Virus record (IMG/VR): IMGVR_UViG_3300037963_004084
Coordinates: 1 to 61,627 of that record
Source of the DNA: a virus
Lineage: Duplodnaviria; Caudoviricetes
Strand: one strand, 5' to 3'
Length of the DNA: 61,627 nucleotides
Translations under genes and position numbers: made by a program
Part shown: positions 3,001 through 56,695 of the stretch, piece by piece
How the letters are laid out: the number at the start of each line of letters is the position of its first letter
Position numbering within the stretch: the stretch's first letter is position 1
The notes under the pieces: model-generated
What the model saw: the letters and a program-made list of their open reading frames with translations, nothing else
The model's database searches: none
What the model was told of the DNA's origin: nothing

Positions 3001-6000
3001 TTGTTCGTCACTGCTTGAAGTATGGCGACCTCTACGGCGAAGCGGGCTCCCTTCGCGTTCAAATCCAAAGTGAACGTATACCTCGCATCTTCTTCACTGT
3101 TAGAGAGGAGTTTCAAGTTCTTTATGCTCCTCGTACTCAGTGGGAGCGGCTGGTCGTATATGTAGACGCCTTTGTCATTGATGCTCCCACTTAGCAGCCC
3201 CTCAACATACGACAGAATTCTTTGAATTGTCTGAGCAATAGTTAGAGACTCTTCCACTCGACCAGACCCTCGGGTGGGGTCTTCCTTGTTTAGAGAAACA
3301 TCTATTCGCGCACTGGTGTTAATAAACTGCAACAGAGTATTGGTTTTTTGTGCCTCTGTAGTGGCCAATTCATCTGCGCTGCTGGTTTTCTTGTGGGTGT
3401 AGTTGCCGCTAGCCCTCACCTCGGAACCACTCCCGTCTCCTACAGGGTAGTACACAGACCTCACCTCCCCCACATCGGCTGCACTCTCCCGCCCATGTGT
3501 ATCCGCTCGGAGAGTCTGGTTGACTTTCTCTCTCGGAAAATCTTTAGGGATGGGGATCGAGTGGACGTTCACTACCTGATCGAGAGCCACCTTCATGGCT
3601 CTGGGATCGTTGTTAAACAGAATCACAATCTCGTTAGTACCACCGTTGCCTTTGCCATCATCGAAGATGCCTCCGGGGGTATCTCTAATCGTGTATATGT
3701 CTGTCTTGCTGAACTGTTGTCTGGTCTTCTGTAAGGTCGCCCATTGTTCGTCGGGAACCTTTGTTCCCATGATAGACTCTAAACTCGCCCTTACTTCCTT
3801 CTCCGTTGTCAGCGGAGAGCCGCTCTCATCAAACTGAACGAGAGGATACCTCGCGTATACGCCTTCAAACTCTCGGTCAGCCGCAGCTTTCTGATCGGTA
3901 GGGTTTACTTTGATGCTTGAGGGGAAACCAAACACGGCGGTCCCCATCCTCCTCAGCGCATTTTTAGCGCCTCCCCTACGAAGGGCACCCGCTTCTACGT
4001 CTTCTTCTACAATAGCGTCGAGTTCGTCCTTGGCCTTCTGTTTAGGGTCGATTTCCAAAAGGACACCTTTGTCCTGTTTCACGGGTCCCTTACCCGCATC
4101 CCTATCAGGCTTCTTCTCACCCTTGGTGGTGACTTTTTCTACATTGGTGGGGTTGCCCTCTTCATCTGTATCAAAGAGATAGATTGGAACTGTATCCACC
4201 AAGTCTCCCAAGTCGTCGCGGAGCTTTTGCTCAGTTGAGCGGTATTTCCTCTCAGTTCCTGTCCTAGGGTCGAGCCCTTCTAATTCTAGAGCCCTGTCGT
4301 AAAACCGATCAGCATCCCTATCTAGTATCTTGGACTCCCTCTCTAGTTCCTCTATCTTCTTTTGCTTGGCTGCAATATGCGGAAGGTCGCGCGCGTACCT
4401 AGCAAGGTATGCGATTGTCTCAGCATCTGAGCCAACCGGAACATTTAGCCTAGTATTTATAGTCAGCGGCCCCCGTCCCGAGCGTGCCAAAGTTCCCGAG
4501 ATGATCTTAAAAGCATCTCGGCCCTCAGACACATTCCCTCGGGGAGCGAATATAATAACAGCTTTTCCCTCGGGGGTTACTAGCTGCCATGTTCCGCCTT
4601 CGTTTTTCTTTACCGCTTCTTTGGAACTCGTTTCTATTTCATCTATTAGTGCCTTAATCTCATCTCTGAGCTCCCCGCTCTGCTCCATTTTTTCTGTAGC
4701 GAGTTTAGCGAGTTTACCTGACTCAGCCTCATCTACGGAAATCTTTTCATCAGCCTCGTAGATATCACGCTCGGCAAGGATCTCAACAAGCTCAGGCTGG
4801 GCCTCTTGTTTTAGTACTCCATCGTTGAAATTATATCCTTTGGTTTCTACAAACTCCCCCAACGCCGGATCAAAAACCAAGACAATGTTATTGAGAGATT
4901 GGTTCGGCTTGGTGCTATCGAGGGTTACGTTGGTTCCGGGCGCAAGGCCCGTAAGCATACTGGGTATATCTGCGGGATCGCGTACACTGTGCAGAACGTG
5001 GGGGGAATTAAAGGCTTTAGCCGTGGTTCCTGATTCCTGACCCGTGGTTCCTGATTCAGGGGCTGGAGGTGTGGGTGCGGGCAAATCCGCTTCGTCCTTC
5101 CCCGCTATATCCCAATCTCGACGATCAACCGAGGTGATCTCCTCTCCTTTGGCGAGCTTAGCTTGAATCTCCTGAACCCGCTTGGCGAAGTATGCGTCAG
5201 ACTTGGCCTGCACCTCGGGAGTGACTCCTGAAGTATCGACCTGCGGCTCCCCGGCTATCTCACGCATATAGTTCTCGATAGTAACTAGGTCTCGCTCGTT
5301 CTCGAATCGCTCACCCCTATCAAAACCTTCAGGAGGATCTTGGAGCTCTGCTCGTAGGCGTTGATGCCTATCACGGAGTTCTTCCAATCTTTCCTGAGGT
5401 CTCGGGTCACCCGCCTCCGCCGCTTCATCTGCCTTTGCTTCAGCACGGGCCTCCAAATCCCGTCGCTCTTTTGGGCTAAGGGGTGTCGGATCAACCGATT
5501 CTTCCTCGGTCTCTGGCTTTGAGACAATACTGTCAATAGCCGTTTCAGAAATGTCGCCCGAGCGTTTGCTCTTGGAGAACATAGCTAGATAGACAGCTCC
5601 TCGTCTATCGTCCTCTTTCCGTTTAAGAATTTCTATGTCCCCCTCACTCTTATAAATATCAGATCGTACAATCGTACCTTTCGGATACTTTTCTGTATCC
5701 CCGTCCACATCCTCGTCCACATCCCCGTCTACCACTGGGTCTGGCTCCAGCTCTTTCCTACGAGTATTAAGCGCCAGAAGATCTTCGAGGGTATCTTTTA
5801 ATCTCCCCAAAAGCTCCAGCTCTGCTGCACGGGTTCCTTTATCAGAGAGATCCCTTCGACGGGCCTTATAGGCAATCCTCTTGTCCAGTGCATCTATCAA
5901 ACCCTGTGTGGGTGTGTCCGTGAAATAATCCTGCCCCACTCCCCCACGGTATGCTCTCGGAGGGCCAGCTTCTGCGCGTTCCTTAAGAGCATCTAGCCCA

Positions 6001-9000
6001 TTTTTGATGCTGCTGATTGTTTGTTTCAGGACGGGCTCATCCCTTTCGATACGGGCCAAGTCCTCTGCCTCTTGTGGGTCTCGCCGAACCTGAGACATCA
6101 ACTCTTCTACCTCTGCTGTGGCATCCTCTTTTGTCATGCCCCTCCCCACAACGAGCGCGTTGATAAGCTCGCTTTTAGCGTCGGGTGTAACAGCAGTCCC
6201 GCCTGTACCCGAAGACTCTTGCGCGGAAGACGACTCTGCTTGAGCTCTGTTAGCCGCCGCGACCGCCTCACTCTGCTGTTCTGCTGTGGAGTTTTCCACA
6301 TTAGCGTCCGCATCACCCTCGGTGATCCCAGTCTGTAGCTGGTGAATAATGTAAGCTACAAGATCCTTCTGTTCTTGAGTAAGGTCTTTATCAGCCGCGA
6401 ATTCTTCAATCTGAGAAATGATCGCCTGCCTTTCAACCAACGAAAAATCATTGGGATTCAAAATGACCGGCAGCATCTCAGCCGACAAAACCTCCAGACC
6501 GATTGATTGTAGAAAGCCTAGGATTCTTTCTTCCTCCGCTAGTGCAGCTTCTTGTGTTAGCTGCGCCTCTGATTCGGCAATTTCAGGTGAAGAACGCTGT
6601 AGAGATGTCCCAAGTTGATCCGCTATTTGCTTTTCAATAGCTTCTCTTTCTTTCTTCGATTTCGCGGCGGCGAGCTTTTCTTGAAGCGGCTTTACTCTCT
6701 CTGCTGCGGCCCTCTCCCGCTGATCTTCGAGCTGTTGCTGGGCTTCGTCTGCGGCTGCTTGCGTGTCCGTGTCCGTGTCCGTAGGGGTGGATGCGTCTGC
6801 GGCTGCGGCTGCGGCTGCGGTTGTGGCTGTGGCTGTGGCTGAGGCTGTGTCTACCTCCGGTTGGGCAGACGCTTCGTCCATCGCAGCGAGAATCTCCTCA
6901 ACTGTGTTGGCAGTTTCTGTGCTTCCGGTAGCCTGTAGCTTAGCGACAGTTTGCTCCCTGATATCGCTGGCTATTTCACGACGGACTCTCGCCTCGGCCC
7001 CCTCTCCCATCGTCCCCCTGTTTGCACGGGACTCAAGAGTTCCTCTGACACCACCACCAAGAGCCCCCAGACCCGCCCCATATGCAGCACCAATGAGCCC
7101 TTCTTTTGCGCGGTCTAAAAATGGGCGATCCCAGTCATCTGCGGAAGTTCCTCTGGCCCCCCATGAGCGGGCGTACGTGTTGAGTAAAGCGTCCGACCCT
7201 TCCTGAAGGGATTCCGCAAGTACTCCGCTGCCCGTTCTCTTTAGAAAGGTATGGCTCATTTTAGCTAAACCCTTCTCTAAGACTTTACTAGTTATGTCTT
7301 TCGTAGCTTCCCCTAAAGAAGCATAGGGTTTCTGCCTTAGTTTCTCTAGTATGGCTTTAAGTCCGCGAGTAGTCCCTCCTCTAGCGGCCCACGTTTCTAA
7401 GCCACCCAATCCCAGTCTCTTCAAAGGTCCCACGCTACCAAGACTGTGGAGACCAAGTACGGTAGCTACCGTAAAAAACCCACCCAAGAAAGCCGCTCCC
7501 GTCGCCCTGTCCTCGATCTCTTCGGCGCTGAGAGGCTTGCCATCAGCGTCGGTAGCCCCCTTCAAAAGCATGTGCATGTCTCCATACGTGTGCCCCGCAG
7601 AGCGCAAAAAAGCGGGAGCCGCCATCGCGGGGAACATCACTCTTTTGGAGCGCATTCCTTTTGCCGCAGCTTCAAAAAGTTTTACCGCCGAGGTTGCCTC
7701 AGCGGTCTTTGCCACCCCCTCGCGTACGAGAGGCAGGGGTTTAACTTTGATAAGCTTCTTCTCTATTGCCTTCTTTACTGTGGCCTCCACAGATTCTTCA
7801 CCGGCTTCTTTCAGGAGTGTCCTCATTCCCCCGCCCACCAGACCAGCAGCATAAGCCTTAGCGGTGCTCCGAACACCGTACTTAGTCCCAGCCGCACTCA
7901 GGTACATAGCGCCCCCCGCGCCCCCCGTTGTCACTGTTAACCCTGTGGTGGCCGTAAGGTCTACAGCTAGCGGGGCGATAAACATCACCCCATCATCCAC
8001 GTATGACGCTTGTTGCCCAAAGATAGAGCTAAGAGCTTTATTCGCCTCACGTTCCGCCGCCCCCTGTTTAAGAATATCCCCACCTAACTTCTCCAAGAAA
8101 ACAGGGTCATCCCCAGAAGTGACTAGGTTTTGAGCCTTACCCGCAATGAGGGAAAGCGCCCCCACCAGATCTCCAGAAGCCTGTAAAATAGATCTGCCAA
8201 CTCGATTATAGAAATTTTTTCCGCTCTCTGTGTCCAGCCATTCTCCTAAAATCTCCCCCCGCGATTTGCTGGATTTAAATTTAGGATCGTATAGATCGGT
8301 CGTTTTAATGTGGTTGAGCCACGAATTTCTTAGATCTGCGGTCCCGTCGAAAATACTATCGACAATCGTTTCATATGAGTCGTCGAGTTTCTTCTTCCTA
8401 AGAGCGCGGAGACGCTCCTCTAGCGTCCTACCCTCCGAGTCTTTGGTTTCTCCCTGTAAGTTTATGAAAACCTTATCTCCATCTTCGTCTACATCTGGGA
8501 AGTAAAGGTCTTTTCGCTTCGAGAGATTATTAAAATCTTCGCTTGCCAGTAGCAACGAGGGATGAATATAAGACTGCTTAGTTACTGGGTCTTGATATAC
8601 ATTTTGCTCAACTCTCTCTAGAGATTGCTTTGCTCTGGTCTTTTTGCCAGTGAAGATAAAACTCTTTTTCTCATGGTATGTTACAGCCCCCGTTTGGACT
8701 GCGACATTCATAGCTACCGATCTAAGAGCGTGAAGTATCTCTTTATCACTTAGGTGCCCTCGTAGTGGGTAAAGTGTTCTAAAGTCTTTTAACGCTTCCC
8801 TGTAGTCTTGTGTGACTACCCTGTTGTACTTGCCAACACCAGCCTTGGTCACGCCGGTAGGAACACCATCCACTTCAATAAACTCATGTACCTCACCCCC
8901 CTGCGGTTTAACGTGAGAAGCCCCTACTTGTTTTATAAGGGCACGTAAACTATCATACAGGTAGCTGTCGGTGGGGACCGACCTGATTAACCTCTCTGCT

Positions 9001-9764
9001 TCGTCTGTATTTCGTGTCGCAGTAGAGCCCTTTGCAGGATTCTTCAGACTATCAATAACTTGCCCTTTAAGCCTTGGGTCTATTGCCCCCGCCTGAATAG
9101 ACTTTGTAACCTCCGCGTCTATATTTTCTTGAGGGATGTCCTTACTAACTATCTGCCCATTTATAATCGCTACACCAAGTCGCCCATCAGACAGCTTGGT
9201 TCTCAACCGGTCTTCTTCTGTGCCCTCTACAAGAAGTTTCAAGGGATCTTCAAACCCCTGTAAGTAGCTCAACTCCTCGTCAGTAAGAGATTCTCTTTCG
9301 CCCTCCATGTTAGGCTCAAGAATATCCGCCCCGACTTGTTTTTCTCTGAGTCGGGCGAACCTAACGGGATTAAAGCCTGACTCTTCGAGGCCATAAAAAA
9401 TATCCCCCACACTAGACCCGTCTTCATTTGTTGACGAGTAGTCTCGTCTCAAACGGAAATAGTTTTCCAGTACCTCGGACTCTTGCTCAGCATAAGGGAC
9501 CTCGGAAACTCTATCGAGAGCTTCGTTGAGTTCTTCTAGGGAGCTAAAGCCCTCAACTAGAAACCTGTCGGCTACTTCGGTCGCCCCCTTTTTTTGCAGG
9601 GGACTTTCGATCTTACTGATAAAACCTTCTATATAATTTCTGAAGGAATTACGCAGAGCAAAATCGTCTTCGGGGTCTATAGGTCTGTTCCTGTGATCAA
9701 CAGGATTAGTCTTCTTCCACTCACTAAATGAGAGTGCGTCTTTAAGCTCATTCAACGATGACAT
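1..9764 (-). CDS. Giant (~4,490 aa in total) polyvalent-like / internal virion protein, N-terminal part; continues through the origin into 57811-61528
   Basis: ATG at 9764 (MSSLNELKDALSFSEWKK...). The track calls no stop-terminated ORF in this frame, and segments translated by hand are open. The frame matches ORF 57811..61599 (61599 = position 71). It contains VILHEVGHAVF at 1734-1748. Confidence 0.85.
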   Translation of the reverse strand, partial: MSSLNELKDALSFSEWKKTNPVDHRNRPIDPEDDFALRNSFRNYIEGFISKIESPLQKKGATEVADRFLVEGFSSLEELNEALDRVSEVPYAEQESEVLENYFRLRRDYSSTNEDGSSVGDIFYGLEESGFNPVRFARLREKQVGADILEPNMEGERESLTDEELSYLQGFEDPLKLLVEGTEEDRLRTKLSDGRLGVAIINGQIVSKDIPQENIDAEVTKSIQAGAIDPRLKGQVIDSLKNPAKGSTATRNTDEAERLIRSVPTDSYLYDSLRALIKQVGASHVKPQGGEVHEFIEVDGVPTGVTKAGVGKYNRVVTQDYREALKDFRTLYPLRGHLSDKEILHALRSVAMNVAVQTGAVTYHEKKSFIFTGKKTRAKQSLERVEQNVYQDPVTKQSYIHPSLLLASEDFNNLSKRKDLYFPDVDEDGDKVFINLQGETKDSEGRTLEERLRALRKKKLDDSYETIVDSIFDGTADLRNSWLNHIKTTDLYDPKFKSSKSRGEILGEWLDTESGKNFYNRVGRSILQASGDLVGALSLIAGKAQNLVTSGDDPVFLEKLGGDILKQGAAEREANKALSSIFGQQASYVDDGVMFIAPLAVDLTATTGLTVTTGGAGGAMYLSAAGTKYGVRSTAKAYAAGLVGGGMRTLLKEAGEESVEATVKKAIEKKLIKVKPLPLVREGVAKTAEATSAVKLFEAAAKGMRSKRVMFPAMAAPAFLRSAGHTYGDMHMLLKGATDADGKPLSAEEIEDRATGAAFLGGFFTVATVLGLHSLGSVGPLKRLGLGGLETWAARGGTTRGLKAILEKLRQKPYASLGEATKDITSKVLEKGLAKMSHTFLKRTGSGVLAESLQEGSDALLNTYARSWGARGTSADDWDRPFLDRAKEGLIGAAYGAGLGALGGGVRGTLESRANRGTMGEGAEARVRREIASDIREQTVAKLQATGSTETANTVEEILAAMDEASAQPEVDTASATATATTAAAAAAADASTPTDTDTDTQAAADEAQQQLEDQRERAAAERVKPLQEKLAAAKSKKEREAIEKQIADQLGTSLQRSSPEIAESEAQLTQEAALAEEERILGFLQSIGLEVLSAEMLPVILNPNDFSLVERQAIISQIEEFAADKDLTQEQKDLVAYIIHQLQTGITEGDADANVENSTAEQQSEAVAAANRAQAESSSAQESSGTGGTAVTPDAKSELINALVVGRGMTKEDATAEVEELMSQVRRDPQEAEDLARIERDEPVLKQTISSIKNGLDALKERAEAGPPRAYRGGVGQDYFTDTPTQGLIDALDKRIAYKARRRDLSDKGTRAAELELLGRLKDTLEDLLALNTRRKELEPDPVVDGDVDEDVDGDTEKYPKGTIVRSDIYKSEGDIEILKRKEDDRRGAVYLAMFSKSKRSGDISETAIDSIVSKPETEEESVDPTPLSPKERRDLEARAEAKADEAAEAGDPRPQERLEELRDRHQRLRAELQDPPEGFDRGERFENERDLVTIENYMREIAGEPQVDTSGVTPEVQAKSDAYFAKRVQEIQAKLAKGEEITSVDRRDWDIAGKDEADLPAPTPPAPESGTTGQESGTTAKAFNSPHVLHSVRDPADIPSMLTGLAPGTNVTLDSTKPNQSLNNIVLVFDPALGEFVETKGYNFNDGVLKQEAQPELVEILAERDIYEADEKISVDEAESGKLAKLATEKMEQSGELRDEIKALIDEIETSSKEAVKKNEGGTWQLVTPEGKAVIIFAPRGNVSEGRDAFKIISGTLARSGRGPLTINTRLNVPVGSDAETIAYLARYARDLPHIAAKQKKIEELERESKILDRDADRFYDRALELEGLDPRTGTERKYRSTEQKLRDDLGDLVDTVPIYLFDTDEEGNPTNVEKVTTKGEKKPDRDAGKGPVKQDKGVLLEIDPKQKAKDELDAIVEEDVEAGALRRGGAKNALRRMGTAVFGFPSSIKVNPTDQKAAADREFEGVYARYPLVQFDESGSPLTTEKEVRASLESIMGTKVPDEQWATLQKTRQQFSKTDIYTIRDTPGGIFDDGKGNGGTNEIVILFNNDPRAMKVALDQVVNVHSIPIPKDFPREKVNQTLRADTHGRESAADVGEVRSVYYPVGDGSGSEVRASGNYTHKKTSSADELATTEAQKTNTLLQFINTSARIDVSLNKEDPTRGSGRVEESLTIAQTIQRILSYVEGLLSGSINDKGVYIYDQPLPLSTRSIKNLKLLSNSEEDARYTFTLDLNAKGARFAVEVAILQAVTNKSEGQTNEEAIMALFNRGEKDFSDLTKLTGKTEADFETANELFGFVLSKFLGRGIPTGEGQSIFDAVAEHISNLTRHEGAASEGSRANSEKPTPNYNAAKGDIDNRLDKASTKQISDKARAESGSVVQPAELASPSDTGSPDEAPKEDAPDTSTLAGVGEVEVDPLIKEIQAKAGDYFLATDARVIRSYIEALEGAGIINLGIENDTPVLEVIDRFEQAMRALPKGWSDTVPDSVNESMQSTVTALGSAMMGGSTRLGASKGAGAAILYLYSINAMGGGLAGGTAATAIVQGAGIELDATDVVKVVNGYRSRSEADYAPSFLDKKFQERIKEMNIQEIADLGLENRDVESLINVLKNAGPDHRMAADLLLQFEDYIRTNLTPVIIEAGNHFAGSFSPTGEVTVNVSGRYGDGVISVILHEVGHAVFQRIISAPDAELTSGQRAAKKQMQVVYDRARKQWENSKKRGIANRNLDYVFETGRQTARLVGPSGVIAASGDLPFYAGADETTLDASQAAMEGTAGSDVILPAARGFEEFFTSWLSSSDFQEATRKIAVGDRSLFRRIIDAIKTMFGVRTGVEKQQAEVVDTIYNFAKLRGSRDLTQSYEDTRARIIAGVQQQVDLVGLKRGLSADLDKRLSQGLVDGPEIDLFKSYLDDFVKAREEGRSGDEEASLAEQVLFSQLLRDEVSRQVPTGVRVVFTNAEDLRSRGLGFKAFAPAFKEVITIEEGGVQKTITQVNFNTDALQSQADLLGDIQYLSSVGSVDPAHLASEEGGAQALEMFRLASRRVRNELELMTLEETVHVVDELVVTDAEREAILEEVGIDALVEAYKDYLQVSDRFNYLRPETREKAEADAEPKLQALREGSPKEMAIALSEMVRMDVQRVVKGATTESVFADALDGLSSPYVTALSRQLTKIVARLGPSLRGERNSNYQQVVQRIVGALKALDSNKPEDAGFIPEQRGLDANQITPLGDIEPLLNSFERQSDLFKKVTDPKSTPAE
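6763..6850. repeat. Low-complexity hexamer repeats (GTGTCC, GCGGCT, GTGGCT) encoding a Thr/Ala/Asp linker in the giant protein
   Basis: Tandem 6-mers visible; the minus strand reads TASATATATTAAAAAAADASTPTDTDTDT. Confidence 0.8.
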
Positions 9765-44216: not shown

Positions 44217-44663
44217 CTACCCCCACACACTCTTGAGGAGCTTGTCCACGGGTACCTGCTTCCTGATTCCTGATTCGTGTTTCAGGGATACGTATCGTGT
44301 ATTGCCGCGCATAAACTCTGAGACCATGGATACACGGCCCGCGGTGCGGCCTCGGGATTCGGGTTTCACGCAGTAAACACAGCCATAGGGGGTGATTGCG
44401 AACCGTGGAAACTCGGGGATCACCTGAGCCCCCTCGAAATCAAAGATATGGGACAAGGATAACTCCGGTGTGGGGGCATCTATGGAATCGTGGGCGAAGT
44501 GGACGCGCTTCCCATCGTCGTTAGTCAGGAGGGTCTTCCAGCGGTCGCCGTTCCACCATCGGCGAAGCCGCTTACAGGTCTTCGTGTTAAATACAAACCC
44601 CGAGGGCAGTAGCACATAATCGCGGGCGTTGGGGATCGGTTGGGTCTGTGGGAGCGTGTCCAT
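44217..44663 (-). CDS. Tandem NUMOD4-like DNA-binding protein without HNH domain
   Basis: Two units: IPNARDYVLLPSGFVFNTKT and IPEFPRFAITPYGCVYC...RYVSL..SGIRKQVPVDKLL. Confidence 0.55.
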   Translation of the reverse strand: MDTLPQTQPIPNARDYVLLPSGFVFNTKTCKRLRRWWNGDRWKTLLTNDDGKRVHFAHDSIDAPTPELSLSHIFDFEGAQVIPEFPRFAITPYGCVYCVKPESRGRTAGRVSMVSEFMRGNTRYVSLKHESGIRKQVPVDKLLKSVWG

Positions 44664-44774: not shown

Positions 44775-45062
44775 CTACTCTGAAATAAAGTTTGACCCCT
44801 CCCTCTTCTCCGCTTTCGCCTTACGAAGCTCTTTGAGCCGTGCACGGTTTTTTAAATAATATGCGCGGTTGTATGCACGCTTTTTTTCGGCCAGCTCGGG
44901 GTCTGCCAATAGGTCTAACGCCCTTTGTTTCAGTATCTTAGCCTTGTTCGCAGCGTAGTACTTCCGTTGGTAAGCCTTTCGTGCTTCGTGGTTCTTTAGA
45001 TAGTATTCGTGCTTCTTCTGGTCACGCATACTGCGTTTTATCGTGCATTTGGGGGTAGTCAA
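44775..45062 (-). CDS. Small basic helical protein (YY.KN repeats)
   Basis: EYYLKNHE, KYYAANKA, AYYLKNRA; start uncertain (ATG at 45029 possible). Confidence 0.6.
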   Translation of the reverse strand: MTTPKCTIKRSMRDQKKHEYYLKNHEARKAYQRKYYAANKAKILKQRALDLLADPELAEKKRAYNRAYYLKNRARLKELRKAKAEKREGSNFISE

Positions 45063-45194
45063 ATTTTTTCACACAACATACACACACAACACATAGTTGT
45101 GAAAAAAATGAGGCAGGGTGGGGGTGGCGTGGTTCGTGATTCATGGTGCAGGATTCGGGCGCGGGATTCGCGGATTTGGGTCTGGACCCATTGT

Positions 45195-45770
45195 GGGGTG
45201 ATAGGAGCTTCCCCGAGGTTCAAGTCCTCCCTCTCCCTAGCTGACCAGATGCTGTGTTCTGGTGATCCCCGCCCGGGATCTCAAAGTGCGGGTGTCGTCA
45301 ATAGACGGCTTGTCCATGCGACGAATAGCATGGGGGCTCTACCGGATGGAATCTGCCTGAGTCCTGAGCGCCTGCCATGTAGCGCAATACAAGTAGCATG
45401 TGCTAGCCTGAGAAGTAACAAGCCTTTGCGCTACCGTAGCGCAATAATGCTTCGTCGGATAGGCCGGGATTGACGAAGGTAGCAATACCCCTTGCAAATA
45501 GTGAGGTTCATTCTCAATGTGACTGGATGATTGGTAGACCATTCTCACGCCACCTTGTGGCGTGTATCGTGTGAGAGTAACCCGTGCTAGGACCACGGGG
45601 GAGGAGCAGGCGTGTGGGCTACCGTGGCCAACAGGGGCGCGATTAGATGCGCGTAAAGATTAGACCCCGACAAACCTTGAGTACAAGGTGACGCCCAATA
45701 GCTTATGATGAAATTGGGGTGTTCATATTTCACCACCGTGAATGACTCACGATGGTGATTCGTGAACATC
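45195..45770 (+). ncRNA. Candidate large structured RNA (~580 nt)
   Basis: No credible ORF; more than 12 consecutive hairpins with G-U pairs, GCAA/AGUA/AAUA loops and a T-loop-like GAGG-UUCAAGU-CCUC. Confidence 0.55.
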
Positions 45771-45798
45771 ACAATAACATCACAAATATCCAAGCAAT

Positions 45799-46242
45799 AT
45801 GACCGTCAAAGAACTGAAAGCCAAATTGACTGCCCTTGACCTGCCAACCAGCGGAAACAAGGAAGCGCTCAAAGCTAGGCTCGCCTCGGCGAACAAGCCT
45901 AAGCCTACCAAGAAGTCGAAGGGTGACCCCGCCGCCGCCGCCGCTGTGGCGAATGTCCGGCAAGGCGTGGAACTCCTTCACTCGGAGTTTGGGGAGGACG
46001 AACTGAAGGGGATTCTCCACTTCAAGCCCTTCTCCAATAACCCGAAGAGCTTCGTGCTGAGGCTTCCCAACATGAAGGAAGCCGCTGCCGCGTTGCCCTT
46101 CACAAACGAGGCGAAGGAGGCGATTGCCCTCCTCCGCAAGTTGCGCGGGTCCGTCGCAGCCGCATTCGGAGATGCGAACCAGTGCTGGGTCCTCCACGCT
46201 AGTGGGGGTGCCGCAGTCTTCTCGCAGCTCCATCTCAAGTAA
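45799..46242 (+). CDS. SAP-domain protein
   Basis: MTVKELKAKLTALDLPTSGNKEALKARL matches the SAP consensus; A-rich leader; UUCG hairpin after the stop. Confidence 0.8.
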   Translation: MTVKELKAKLTALDLPTSGNKEALKARLASANKPKPTKKSKGDPAAAAAVANVRQGVELLHSEFGEDELKGILHFKPFSNNPKSFVLRLPNMKEAAAALPFTNEAKEAIALLRKLRGSVAAAFGDANQCWVLHASGGAAVFSQLHLK

Positions 46243-46446
46243 CCCCCACATTCATCCCCGCTCTTCGGAGCGGCGGGTGACATGGTTCATGGAACCTGTG
46301 TCCATGAACCCTGTCACCTGATTCCTGATTCCCGATTCATCATACGTGATCCACGGAATCCGGTGAGGTATCACGCTCCCCGATACTCAGGTATTGAGTT
46401 ACCTAGACCAGTTAAGGCACTGGCTGTGAACACAGCTAGGGAGTTT

Positions 46447-47137
46447 CTCCTAGGCATGAGGCTAAACTGCCTACGACTTTATGTGGACTGATATATTAAC
46501 CTTAACCAAGGAGGGTTCTACCATGAACTAAACACAGCCCACTGCGGGAAGCAGACGACCCTGCACCCACCCGTTCCGCGCCCACACCTGTGGGACTGCC
46601 CTTGCGGCGAGAACGTGGGGTGTAGGATAGTCATATACCCAACCACCCGAGTTCTGGAGCGGTGGTTGGGGTGTATGCACCCACACTTTCACTTTATCAC
46701 TCTGTTTGCCTGACGAGCGGTAGGGCAAACCAACATGATAAGGCCGCGACCCCTCCTAGGCATGAGGCTAAACTGCCTACCAACCCTAACCTTCTCCTCT
46801 AGCACTCTGGCATTGGAGTCGTATACCACATGAGTCTTCCCGCGGTGGGAGAATGACAAATCCGCAACGGTTGTGGACCGCCGAATTGGTCCTAGGCTCG
46901 CCTCTCCGTGCCTCTCATAATACAGAAAACGGAGACACGCTGGGTGTCGTGTGAACCACGCCCGCTCCTAGGCATGAGGCTAAACTGCCTACGACTCTGT
47001 TTGCCTGACGAGCGGTAGGGCAAACACAATAGCACCGCTAAGGGTTGTCCCTTCCGCAGCCCATTAAACAGGAAGGCCGAGCGGTCGCACTTAGAAAGGC
47101 TCAGCGACTCCCTCCTAGGCATGAGGTTAAACTGCCT
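46447..47137 (+). repeat. Repeat A x4: CTCCTAGGCATGAGGYTAAACTGCCT
   Basis: Copies at 46447-46472, 46753-46778, 46965-46990 and 47112-47137 (the last has one substitution). Confidence 0.95.
46699..47025 (+). repeat. Repeat B x2: ACTCTGTTTGCCTGACGAGCGGTAGGGCAAAC
   Basis: Identical 32-mers at 46699-46730 and 46994-47025. Confidence 0.95.
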
Positions 47138-47306
47138 GTGTCTGATCAGCCACCTGTCAGACCACTAGCGGTATACCGCACCAAGACGCTGAAGCGATAA
47201 GTCCTACGGACGCGCAGGCCCGCCGAGTCTAGGGTGGTTCTCTTTCCAAGGGTAAACCCGAACCCTTTTCAATCGGGCAAGTAGTATAACTAACCAAACC
47301 AAAACA

Positions 47307-47860: not shown

Positions 47861-48032
47861 ATCCCTAATTGACAAGCACGATGAATCGTGCGAGAAACGG
47901 GGCATCGACCCCAAGACTGGGGAGCCTAAGCCCACACCCCAAGACCTTCTGGAGCAGGAGGCGTTTGGTTACCCGATATCCCTTGGTCGGCCCGTCCTCC
48001 CTGCTAACTTCCCAACCCCACGAACCCCATGA
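47844..48032 (+). CDS. Early hypothetical protein
   Basis: Overlaps both neighbours. Confidence 0.5.
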   Translation: MRKEIESLIDKHDESCEKRGIDPKTGEPKPTPQDLLEQEAFGYPISLGRPVLPANFPTPRTP

Positions 48033-48421
48033 GTGAGAGACTATATATAACCTACTTCGATGCTGCCACATCACGGGATGTAGGGCATGTCACCCTCATG
48101 TCTCCCTTTGATGGGGATAATGCACCCATGCCTGACAGGGTAGCCCGAGATAACATGCCCGACCATGTGGCTGTCCTGATGGACAGCACCACCATACACT
48201 GGGACCTGCGGGTCAAGAGTGTGCGGGATGCCAACCGTGAGCTACTCTGTAGTGGAGTTCGTCGGGGGTGGATATCCCCCGAGACGGGGGAGTGGTTGGA
48301 GCTAGGGGCGAAACACCCATTCCGCCCCCGAAACCGCCGCAAGCGTACCCGACTCAGGAAAACCCTGACAGGTGTAGCTGTAGCTGGAGCAGTGATAGGA
48401 ATCCTGATCCTAATCTTTTAA
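48029..48421 (+). CDS. Early protein with C-terminal membrane anchor
   Basis: Basic patch followed by GVAVAGAVIGILILIF. Confidence 0.6.
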   Translation: MSERLYITYFDAATSRDVGHVTLMSPFDGDNAPMPDRVARDNMPDHVAVLMDSTTIHWDLRVKSVRDANRELLCSGVRRGWISPETGEWLELGAKHPFRPRNRRKRTRLRKTLTGVAVAGAVIGILILIF

Positions 48422-48446
48422 CCAATTTCGGGGTAGCTCCCCGAAC

Positions 48447-48598
48447 GTGAGTGACTGAATAATCTTTCTACAACAGAGATAAGGTATCTGTATCTTGAGC
48501 AGGGGTCAACCGACTGAGCAGAGAGAGCGGAGTGCGAGTAGGCAAACGATGCTATGTTGGAGCCGAAAGTTGAGGGTAAAAAATAAATCCCTCCTCAC
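48447..48598 (+). ncRNA. manA-like structured RNA
   Basis: Closing stem GUGAG/CUCAC, 5' UGACUGAAUAAUCUUUC, internal UAAGG and 3' hairpin GAGGG-UA...AAU-CCCUC; resembles my recollection of the manA motif. Confidence 0.55.
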
Positions 48599-48632
48599 AT
48601 CTTATATTTATTATGACACCATATGTAAAATT

Positions 48633-49721: not shown

Positions 49722-49810
49722 CGTCACAATGCAACCCAACCCTGCATCCTGTATCCTGATTCCTGTAGGTTGTAGGGTTAACCACAAATAAGGAATCAAA
49801 GTATAAGCAA

Positions 49811-56053: not shown

Positions 56054-56527
56054 ATGAATATATTTGTCGTAGATAAAGATCCGACCACCGCAGCACAACA
56101 ACTGTGTGACAAGCATGTGGTCAAGATGATCCTTGAGTCAGCGCAGATGTTGTGTGCGGCCTACCCCAAGGGTGATGCCCCATACAAGCGCGCCTTCTAC
56201 AATCACCCATGCACCATCTGGGCTAGGGAATCGAAGGACAACTATGATTGGCTACTCACCCACGCCGATGAGATGTGCCGCGAGTACACCTACCGTTATG
56301 GCAAGACGCACAAGTCAACTGATGTCATACACTGGTGTGCAGCTAACTACTCAAAGCTAGGCTTGAGCAAGCAGGGTCTCACCCCCTTCGCTCAGGCCAT
56401 GCCGGAAGAATACAAACGAGTATTCGCAGTGACTGCTTACCGTGCCTACTACAACGGTGAGAAGAGTTACTTCGCCAAGTGGTCGGGGCGTGATACCCCT
56501 GACTGGTTCCTGAATCCCGATTCCTGA
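56054..56527 (+). CDS. Pyrimidine-dimer DNA glycosylase-like protein (DenV/Pyr_excise family)
   Basis: MNIF..D.DP...AQ.LCDKHVVKMILESAQML, NHPCTIWAR, EYTYRYGKTH, AQAMP, AYRAYY. Confidence 0.8.
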   Translation: MNIFVVDKDPTTAAQQLCDKHVVKMILESAQMLCAAYPKGDAPYKRAFYNHPCTIWARESKDNYDWLLTHADEMCREYTYRYGKTHKSTDVIHWCAANYSKLGLSKQGLTPFAQAMPEEYKRVFAVTAYRAYYNGEKSYFAKWSGRDTPDWFLNPDS

Positions 56528-56530
56528 ATC

Positions 56531-56695
56531 ATGAGTCACCCATACATACCCTACGTCACGTTAGATGGAGAGGATATCCGTCTGGATAATGTCGAGTTCC
56601 TTAACATAGAGGAAGACTTTTACGGACGAGATCTCGTTACGTTTAACTACGAAGGCGAAAGACACCAATCATATATCATCCACAAACCATACTGA
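56531..56695 (+). CDS. Small hypothetical protein (54 aa, not in track)
   Basis: MSHPYIPYVTLDGEDIRLDNVEFLNIEEDFYGRDLVTFNYEGERHQSYIIHKPY. Confidence 0.6.
   Translation: MSHPYIPYVTLDGEDIRLDNVEFLNIEEDFYGRDLVTFNYEGERHQSYIIHKPY

Follow-up and report, generated by a model that had tools for sequence, protein, structure and literature searches.

In the pL N-leader of phage lambda and the A1-to-R0.3 leader of T7, the first early gene is preceded by a hairpin sensitive to RNase III. Few large and intricately folded RNAs exist, and most of those known are machines or assemblies, as exemplified by the ribosome, RNase P, introns and the ROOL and GOLLD cages. The T-loop motif is a part of the tRNA T-arm and recurs in riboswitches, tmRNA and the RNA of RNase P. 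According to PMC12286853, which deals with their cryo-EM structures, GOLLD and ROOL are usually encoded close to tRNA islands of phages or prophages, and the 3′ part of GOLLD is conserved better than its 5′ part. Here we describe a locus from an uncultured marine phage, in which a non-coding RNA region of ~600 nt heads the early genes, occupying approximately positions 45187–45784 (plus strand) of the window, i.e. the whole 61,627-nt stretch of DNA analysed, and sitting at a divergent junction between leftward and rightward genes. The original prediction, made from the DNA letters, was of a candidate large structured RNA of ~580 nt with which the early region opens and which its author could assign to no family; our size estimate is close to the one claimed, and the interpretation is supported by the results presented here. 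That the locus encodes a real structured RNA representing an uncatalogued family is, in our opinion, highly probable.

The stem-rich character noted for positions 45195–45770 indeed exceeds chance expectation when the folding is compared with that of shuffled sequences. The plus strand of this stretch reaches −231.9 kcal/mol, as opposed to −196.4 ± 6.7 kcal/mol for 100 dinucleotide shuffles (z = −5.31), none of which (0/100) folded as well, and the copy of the RNA on the contig L090 has a z-score of −4.68. The minus strand of the same stretch scored −3.15, and two coding segments of 576 nt, taken as controls from elsewhere in this genome, scored −1.73 and −1.42. Alignment folding yielded −191 kcal/mol and 182 pairs for the plus strand versus −166 kcal/mol and 158 pairs for the minus strand. 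The proposal that G-U pairs favour the plus strand agrees with the comparison of the window with the contig L002, where all single-sided changes (13/13) stay paired via G-U. These changes are kept only as plus-strand G-U pairs, a pattern not expected of hairpins at the level of DNA (cruciforms).

The region is non-coding. Base changes sorted by position modulo three number 10/12/15 (p = 0.6) and are thus devoid of a codon rhythm, as contrasted with 4/54/3 in the neighbouring gene, and the lengths of indels between RNA copies are not multiples of three. Two ORFs overlap the region, one of 154 codons (45009–45473) and one of 14 codons located behind a GGAGG motif. The frame of the former is disrupted in L090 by a 58-nt insertion and other indels, and the changes seen in the alignment of the latter mostly alter amino acids, two of them constituting both halves of a single stem swap. 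Immediately upstream of the RNA lies a block of heptamer repeats (table 1) that is present also in relatives lacking the RNA: the sequences L013 and L003 match the window there and diverge at around position 45200 (alignment A3), and the nhmmer matches of L013, L003 and L023 are confined to this block. Only weak sites, located further to the left than the block, were found by a sigma-70 scan. Scans of the segment between the RNA and the gene that follows it, encoding a SAP-domain protein, found no terminator-like site and no convincing internal promoter. The same early region also contains a manA RNA at 48427–48603, recognised by Rfam, and a structured stretch at 46500–47300 (z = −3.16).

Table 1. 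Features of the RNA locus, with positions counted from the first letter of the window.
Feature	Position	Strand	Basis or remarks
Upstream block, GGATTCG-like repeats with a 7-bp period	45117–45186	+	Alignment A3; presumed promoter-proximal
Small 5′ hairpin CCCA-UUG-UGGG	45187–45197	+	Fold of the L090 copy, alignment A3
T-loop hairpin, 4-bp stem and 7-nt loop UUCAAGU	45215–45229	+	Three-lineage comparison
Three-way junction	45235–45292	+	17 pairs: 5 double and 3 single changes, 0 broken
Junction closing helix	45235–45237/45290–45292 and 45240–45242/45285–45287	+	
Junction hairpins ACCAGA/UCUGGU and GAUCC/GGAUC	45244–45263 and 45264–45280	+	
Hairpins GUCGUC-AAUA-GACGGC (45294–45309) and CCAUGC-loop-GCAUGG (45314–45333)	45294–45333	+	12 pairs: 5 double and 1 single change, 0 broken
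Middle domain	45335–45458	+	RNAalifold, three lineages, per-helix table; 3 double-change pairs, 4 single, 3 broken cells
Middle-domain hairpin (inner stem 45343–45355)	45335–45363	+	
Middle-domain helix	45364–45375/45396–45406	+	
Middle-domain helix around hairpin 45426–45444	45407–45417/45448–45458	+	
Conserved core domain, GGCC/GGCC-closed	45462–45629	+	Alignment A9, model R1
GGGG/CCCC helix around CGCG-loop-CGCG hairpin, then ACCUUG-AGUA-CAAGGU hairpin	45634–45689	+	Helix table
Long terminal hairpin, ~29 bp with internal loops	45706–45782	+	Helix table, lineage comparison
SAP-domain gene, 147-aa protein	45799–46242	+	Pfam SAP (PF02037)

The RNA is represented on five contigs, which fall into three lineages (the window and L085; L002; L090 and L092). 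Their comparison indicates that the fold is preserved by compensating changes on the plus strand, with helices maintained in both L002 and L090/L092. In the 5′ domain, 33 pairs distributed over seven helices exhibit 11 double and four single changes across the three lineages, with no broken cells (0/99). The window and L002 differ at 11 of their 208 predicted pairs by double and at 13 by single changes, all cells (416/416) remaining paired; when the partners were slid by 1–3 columns as a control, 0–1 double changes were obtained. For the MFE structure of the window alone, six double changes were counted, compared with a null mean of 0.7, and this number was reached in none of 2000 permutations. 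Population variants from four marine runs (DNA contigs) repeat or split the helix swaps; no RNA data set figured among the 23 runs listed for the locus. Many helices are invariant, and the lineages number only three and are ~90% alike in the core. As 19 changed pairs are broken on the single-sequence MFE structure, the global fold is uncertain.

Two of the 12 pairings specified in the original prediction fail in the light of this comparison. One is CTTCGTC/GACGAAG, whose 5′ strand reads CCCCGTA in L002 while the opposite strand is unchanged, so that three of the seven pairs are lost; its CTTC part pairs instead with GAAG at 45412–45417, the AA>GG change there being compensated by TT>CC. The other is the long-range pairing CCTCTCCC/GGGGGAGG: the 5′ strand reads TCGCTCGC in L090, yet GGGGGAGG is invariant, and the CCC within CCTCTCCC pairs with GGG at 45290–45292, a C-G pair there being swapped to G-C in L090. 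Double changes in other lineages preserve GAGG/CCTC, ACCAGA/TCTGGT, GATCCC/GGGATC, GTCGTC/GACGGC, CCATGC/GCATGG and CACGCCAC/GTGGCGTG; TTGCGCT/AGCGCAA is backed by one double and one single change, and ACCTTG/CAAGGT is maintained through two single changes of the G-U type. The pairing TCACCA/TGGTGA proved to be a piece of the long 3′ hairpin, which has the same shape and another sequence in L090/L092. No variation across lineages was found in GGTA-GCAA-TACC, which RNAalifold chose once, an alternative being preferred in two other runs.

The hairpin at the very beginning of the RNA, replaced by CCC-AUA-GGG in relatives with a different downstream module, is possibly the 5′-terminal hairpin of the early transcript. 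In the T-loop hairpin, the second pair of the stem is A-U, U-A or C-G across the three lineages. The loop itself reads UUCAAGU or UUCAAUC in the lineages and UUCGAGU in a marine sequencing run (X10), its variation being limited to positions 4, 6 and 7, such that the UUCRA signature is kept; at the sequence level, a T-loop motif (a U-U-C-R-A loop closed by a helix) is thus present. An intermediate form of the three-way junction, with one A-U pair swapped to G-C, was encountered in another run (X7), and the 58-nt insertion of L090 falls into this junction, where it folds as two extra hairpins. The 5′ domain is variable and the 3′ core conserved (~90% nucleotide identity between lineages). The core includes an invariant 46-nt stretch around GACGAAGGUAGCAAUACC and the invariant GGGGGAGG, along with the hairpins CACGCCAC/GUGGCGUG and CCCGUG/CACGGG, and five pairs with double changes occur in its helices at 45532–45612. 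Behind the core, L090 has GCGUG/GCACG as opposed to GCGCG/GCGCG in its near twin L092, which amounts to a double change. The terminal hairpin is not followed by a U-tract and, going by the coordinates, stops 17 nt short of the SAP gene's start codon, this spacing being 15–28 nt across the window and L090/L092. In L090/L092 the hairpin differs in sequence and retains its shape (−39.6 versus −27.4 kcal/mol). We regard it as a candidate processing or translation-control element.

Searches with cmscan against Rfam 15 (4227 models), with membership defined by a score at or above the gathering threshold, assigned the RNA to no family, either at that threshold or at E ≤ 10. At the gathering threshold the manA RNA mentioned above was the sole match in the whole window; at E ≤ 10 six weak matches were recorded within 44900–46000 (the best at 25.9 bits, compared with a threshold of 84 bits) and one weak match in the L090 copy. 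Ten related loci yielded no match. Neither the GOLLD and ROOL models (window region and L090 copy) nor those of RNase P RNA matched at E ≤ 10. ARAGORN detected no tRNA or tmRNA in the 61.6-kb record or in the loci L002, L090, L085 and L092, and the ACCA that follows the T hairpin is located inside a covarying stem. Full-text literature searches brought up neither this RNA nor any leader RNA of a SAP gene. PMC10690425 presents a catalogue of candidate structured RNAs from IMG/VR, for entry into which a sequence had to match three or more IMG/VR regions; this locus could be among the entries of its supplementary tables.

The RNA module is rare among related virus records. The model of the RNA core (R1) matched one of 49 whole records (L018 not being among those searched), which is also one of the two records possessing a member of the SAP protein family (2/49). 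No match to the RNA was found by blastn among 50,697 phage records, and blastn together with nhmmer against 79 related IMG/VR loci located the RNA body only on the contig of L002, the same contig that alone was returned by exact-pattern, protein and profile (A7) scans of IMG/VR. Scans of genome contigs gave no pattern matches, and none of the 22 pattern matches from the protein scan (A8) was confirmed. Three of the nine loci from a metagenome scan are real, the other six representing chance 18-mer matches. When run over 87 sources (1.05 Mb), model R1 retrieved the window and a weak match in L054, and a comparison of 10-mer words across all loci produced noise. The leader of a distant homologue of the protein (G046, locus L098) showed no likeness to the RNA (alignment score of 27, the null being 26.7) and folded with z = −1.82. 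The idea that structured leaders occupy the same place in all relatives was not borne out: the leader of L078 has z = −1.01, L013 has a short leader followed by ORFs, and the z-score of −12.4 in L042 reflects a few long perfect hairpins.

The protein encoded behind the RNA comprises an N-terminal SAP domain (Pfam E = 7e-10; 38.7 bits against a cutoff of 23.9 bits), a Lys-rich linker and a C-terminal domain without a fold match. Its AlphaFold model has a mean pLDDT of 77, and residues 1–39 of the model superimpose on the SAP domain 1zrj with Z = 5.8 and an rmsd of 2.0 over 38 residues. SAP domains are DNA binders, and no recognised RNA-binding domain was found in the protein. For the C-terminal domain, Foldseek retrieved no PDB match at E ≤ 0.001, the best Z in a wide VIA-align search was 5.6 (inside the stated noise of the tool), the best E in a PDB profile search was 0.61 and all ESM Atlas scores were below 0.9. 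PHROGs gave no match, and single-protein homologue scans returned nothing useful, one of them matching SAP domains only. The Pfam family Rpp14/Pop5 matched it below the threshold (E = 0.0037; 17.8 versus 23 bits), as it did in three of 23 members of the protein family (best E = 0.0002); Pop5 is absent among the structure and profile matches listed for the protein. A homologous SAP gene follows the RNA on all five contigs, and conservation is far higher in the RNA than in this gene: for the same lineage pairs, the RNA core is 90% and the SAP gene 61–65% identical at the nucleotide level, the break coinciding with the start codon.

The reading we favour, if only tentatively, is that the RNA may serve as a structured leader and work jointly with the SAP gene. 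Rightward (early) transcription would begin, presumably in the divergent promoter region, with a first transcript whose 5′ portion is this RNA, and it would continue into the SAP gene, with no terminator in between. The T-loop hairpin, the three-way junction and the conserved core might form a binding or sensing platform, the ligand of which would most simply be the SAP-domain protein itself, or perhaps a host factor. The terminal hairpin, preceding a start codon devoid of an SD sequence, may provide for an RNase III-type cut and/or for control of ribosome access. Against this reading, the SAP protein has no recognised RNA-binding domain and a C-terminal domain that matches nothing, and its gene could adjoin the RNA simply because the two are linked in a single mosaic module.

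The main rival, which we consider somewhat less likely, would make the RNA a free-standing trans-acting molecule similar to ROOL or GOLLD and the SAP gene its neighbour only; made early and freed by a cut in the terminal hairpin, it might serve as a decoy or sponge, as an anti-defence RNA or in an RNA-only assembly. The size, the many-domain fold, the long invariant stretches and the T-loop motif are all consistent with such a role, and a multi-domain fold of ~520 nt with a T-loop exceeds what known processing or translation operators need, which favours this explanation. So do the further RNA elements nearby (the manA RNA and the structured stretch behind the SAP gene), the much better conservation of the RNA than of the gene behind it and the combination of a variable 5′ domain with a conserved 3′ core, a pattern that PMC12286853 gives for GOLLD. 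However, there is no terminator behind the RNA and no sign of a 3′ end of its own, the SAP gene accompanies it on all five contigs, the Rfam models of ROOL and GOLLD do not match it, tRNA genes are absent from its surroundings, and covarying palindromic loops, a sign of self-assembly, were not seen in the few sequences compared.

The junction position brings to mind also a replication primer or origin transcript, given that RNA II of ColE1 plasmids and the origin transcripts of T4 and T7 prime DNA synthesis; an R-loop would then form at the strand switch and the origin would be bound by the SAP protein, a role compatible with DNA binding by SAP domains in general and with the SAP fold match obtained here. 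We consider this improbable despite a length like that of RNA II and the invariant G-rich run GGGGGAGG, since 47–48 of the 49 related records, equipped with the same replication genes, are without both the RNA and the protein, meaning that this is not the origin of the family; moreover, no GC-skew turning point occurs here and nothing ties the locus to the replication module at 15–22 kb. Still less probable is that the RNA belongs, in degenerate or diverged form, to a known class such as the tRNA-like RNAs and two-piece tmRNAs, the RNase P RNAs or the group I/II introns. The T-loop hairpin, a weak match to tRNA-Sec (18.4 bits at 45157–45237) and the sub-threshold matches of the SAP protein to an RNase P subunit family could be taken as hints of it, but neither tRNA nor tmRNA was called by ARAGORN in the window and four homologous loci, the tRNA-Sec match, the only one for these classes at E = 10, covers mainly sequence upstream of the RNA and does not recur in L090, no interrupted gene is found at the flanks, and Pop5 does not figure among the listed matches. 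It is hardly credible that no RNA element exists at all and that the locus instead harbours DNA-level signals (operator or promoter arrays, cruciforms) or small protein genes. The heptamer repeats and the conserved block just upstream, as well as the two ORFs, might be read in this way, but single-sided changes preserve the pairs only as plus-strand G-U, codon periodicity is absent, indels in L090 break the 154-codon frame, and the changes in the 14-codon ORF are mostly amino-acid altering, with two forming a stem swap.

A further reading is that the RNA and the SAP protein are two parts of a phage ribonucleoprotein of a new type, the first product made after infection, which we regard as unlikely. 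If it were nevertheless true, working or targeting would fall to the conserved RNA, with the T-loop mimicking tRNA or another host RNA, and the fast-evolving protein would be the part engaged in an arms race against the host, the complex for instance countering RNA- or tRNA-directed defence or redirecting host gene expression. The locus presents a compact case, in which a T-loop, a fixed protein-gene partner and the contrast between a slowly evolving RNA and a fast-evolving gene meet at the head of an early operon, and it is tractable in vitro even without a cultured phage. It is also a further indication that RNA elements with unassigned roles in host takeover abound in the early regions of marine phages.

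The T-loop hairpin resembles the tRNA T-arm in its 7-nt loop with the U-U-C-R-A signature carried by a covarying stem, but it differs in that the stem has four base pairs rather than five and that acceptor, D and anticodon arms are absent, and it is called neither by ARAGORN nor by the models of the Rfam tRNA clan. Like ROOL and GOLLD, the RNA as a whole is phage-encoded, ~600 nt long, non-coding and composed of many helices, and its 5′ part is less conserved than the 3′ part, as described for GOLLD. Unlike them, it shows no likeness to their Rfam models, has no tRNA genes around it in 61.6 kb, stands before an early protein gene and is narrowly distributed, being found in one of 49 related records. 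Compared with the early leaders of lambda and T7, it is two to three times longer and has a conserved multi-domain fold with a T-loop, and the protein encoded downstream is a SAP-domain protein rather than an N-type antiterminator. What it has in common with both is its position, behind the early promoter region and ahead of the earliest gene, and a long imperfect hairpin placed directly before the start codon.

A conserved non-coding fold on the plus strand heads the early region of this phage and is inherited together with the gene of a SAP-domain protein. The stem-rich stretch at 45195-45770, which the original prediction had proposed as a candidate structured RNA of about 580 nt, is indeed real: its folding far beats dinucleotide shuffles on the plus strand (z -5.31; -3.15 on the minus strand), with two coding stretches of equal length giving z -1.73 and -1.42 as a control. 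The source is an uncultured marine phage, whose IMG/VR record of 61,627 bases was judged 99% complete; compared with deposited phages, its DNA polymerase stays below 30% identity and its 736-aa structural protein is without a match, and the stretch is present in whole or in part in runs from nine marine-metagenome studies. The RNA lies between two genes, one leftward of 95 codons and one rightward of 147 codons, at a divergence point from which structural genes run leftward and early genes rightward.

Searching 79 related loci, fetched via the 736-aa protein, we found the RNA in only one contig (L002, identical with L081; 91% identity). A metagenome pattern scan yielded three further copies: L085, nearly identical to the window and perhaps from the same source; L090, a divergent copy; and L092, close to L090 and comprising the 3' half. 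Together the copies make up three lineages (window/L085, L002 and L090/L092). Contigs from four more marine runs are mixtures of the same variants, including an intermediate whose ACCAGA/UCUGGU stem has one A-U pair turned into G-C, and another variant with the T-loop UUCGAGU. A model of the conserved core found the RNA in one of 49 related virus records. A short match to the invariant GACGAAGGUA-NCAA-UACCCCUU hairpin region occurs in L054, a relative without the RNA, inside an early gap of about 1 kb poor in ORFs (blastn, 28 nt at 93%; 28/30 positions by eye; core model E 0.049 over 87 sources and 0.00066 on L054 alone), and may represent a small module common to both. In the relative L042 the early gap is another sort of element at the corresponding site (z -12.4, from several very long near-perfect hairpins).

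The RNAalifold structure of the window and L002 comprises 208 pairs, with 11 double changes, 13 single changes and none broken, and sliding the partners by 1-3 columns left 0-1 double changes. Because the two sequences scored were also those from which this structure had been predicted, we also scored the window's own MFE structure, which has six double changes against 0.7 expected, a value reached in 0 of 2000 permutations; the 19 changed pairs broken in it show that this global MFE is imperfect. In the 5' domain, where seven helices were set by coordinates since MAFFT misaligns L090 there, 33 pairs show 11 double and 4 single changes, with 0/99 cells broken. In the T hairpin each of the three lineages has its own second pair (A-U, U-A or C-G), and L090 differs from its near twin L092 by one extra double change (GCGUG/GCACG versus GCGCG/GCGCG). 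Folding of the plus strand, as predicted, is supported by the single changes between the window and L002, all of which pass via G-U, and by alignment folding (-191 kcal/mol versus -166 on the minus strand). Two proposed pairings did not withstand the comparison, the long-range CCTCTCCC/GGGGGAGG pair being contradicted by L090 and the CTTCGTC/GACGAAG stem by L002.

Two related loci, L013 and L003, diverge completely from the window after ~45200, which places the start of the RNA module at this point, near the predicted 45195. Its body runs, 5' to 3', through a T-loop hairpin, a three-way junction, two hairpins, a middle domain, the core, two hairpins and a terminal hairpin, after which no U-tract or terminator-like site was found. 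Read off the sequences, the outer end of this hairpin lies 28 nt before the start codon in the window and 15 nt in L090/L092, and none of these sequences has a Shine-Dalgarno before the SAP start codon.

Features of the RNA and its surroundings (window coordinates unless another locus is named)
Feature	Position	Strand	Remarks
Arrays of 7-bp period, type CCTGATTC / GGATTCG	5025-5060, 44262-44290, 45128-45178, 46313-46340, 49745-49766, 56505-56535		possible operators or promoter elements; exact GGATTCG no commoner in the window than expected (8 against 8.4)
95-codon gene	44775-45062	-	
Perfect 10-nt inverted repeat TTTTTTCACA / TGTGAAAAAA	45064-45107		around CA-rich spacer between the divergent genes; left part kept in all four relatives aligned
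Upstream block	5' of the RNA		heptamer-like repeats; common to relatives without the RNA
Small hairpin	45187-45197		also common to relatives without the RNA
Three-way junction			site of the 58-nt, two-hairpin insertion in L090
Highly conserved core	45462-45629	+	46-nt invariant stretch and invariant GGGGGAGG
Long terminal hairpin	45706-45782	+	same shape, different sequence in L090/L092
SAP gene (147 codons)	45799-46242	+	
Second long hairpin at a start codon in the SAP operon	46276-46318		18 bp, 94% complementary; encloses start codon (46282) of 69-codon gene behind the SAP gene
ORF-poor region after SAP and 69-codon genes	46500-47300	+	z -3.16 (20 shuffles); repeated segments, also in L002
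130-codon gene	48029-48421		
manA RNA (Rfam)	48427-48603	+	58.8 bits, threshold 55.2; directly 3' of 130-codon gene, same early region as the RNA
L054 match	L054 2174-2201	-	
L042 early gap	L042 3850-4648	-	
Leader in G046	L098 925-1545 = G046 8929-9549		

The inverted repeat is possibly a common control site of the divergent promoters. As to the manA match, RNAs of this family have been described in marine metagenomes, in T4-like cyanophages and in a few gamma-proteobacteria (PMC2864571); the carrier here is an unrelated ~62-kb phage.

All five contigs carry, behind the RNA, the gene of a 142-147-aa protein with an N-terminal SAP domain. Seven close clusters (57-95% identity) were present in the protein database, and a profile search added some 20 more distant ones, whose common part is the C-terminal domain alone, mostly behind Ala/Pro/Lys-rich tails. 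This domain matched no family or fold; the matches of the protein to Rpp14/Pop5 are sub-threshold and had no backing among the structural matches listed. Identity of the window to the L002/L090 type is 90% (nt) in the RNA core, 61-65% (nt) and 61% (aa) in the SAP gene, and 98-99% (protein) in the left flanking genes, the drop beginning at the SAP start codon. The protein family occurs in 2 of 49 related virus records. The second is the distant relative G046, where a homologue of the C-terminal domain (E 1e-22) sits at a divergent junction behind an ORF-poor leader of ~620 nt, with no detectable sequence likeness to the RNA and a weak fold (z -1.82).

A coding region or DNA-level signals are unlikely to account for the stretch. 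The RNA region is non-coding: substitutions between lineages are spread evenly over codon positions (10/12/15 and 15/11/13, against 4/54/3 in the neighbouring gene), and indels, among them a 58-nt insertion in L090, are not multiples of three. A degenerate member of a known RNA class is likewise improbable. Rfam 15 holds no family for the window or L090 copy, and neither Rfam 15 nor a full-text literature search gave a description of the RNA; ARAGORN found no tRNA or tmRNA in the window or four homologous loci, and a tRNA-Sec match (18.4 bits) was dismissed as weak, mostly upstream of the RNA and absent in L090. The IMG/VR catalogue of candidate structured RNAs required at least three IMG/VR regions (PMC10690425); this RNA has two.

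The chief alternative is an independent RNA that acts in trans, of the ROOL/GOLLD sort. In its favour, the fold is large and complex and evolves much more slowly than the SAP gene; the lack of a terminator of its own and the constant adjacency of that gene speak against it, and we consider it possible but doubtful. A primer or origin RNA is unlikely. Our tentative preference is for a structured leader working with the SAP gene, which would serve the SAP protein or a host factor as a platform, its terminal hairpin perhaps acting as a point of processing or translation control. We rate the RNA as a new family of an established kind, the large structured RNAs and leaders of phages, distinguished by its T-loop module and fixed SAP partner. 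The nearest precedents for a leader of this architecture are the lambda N-leader and the T7 R0.3 leader.
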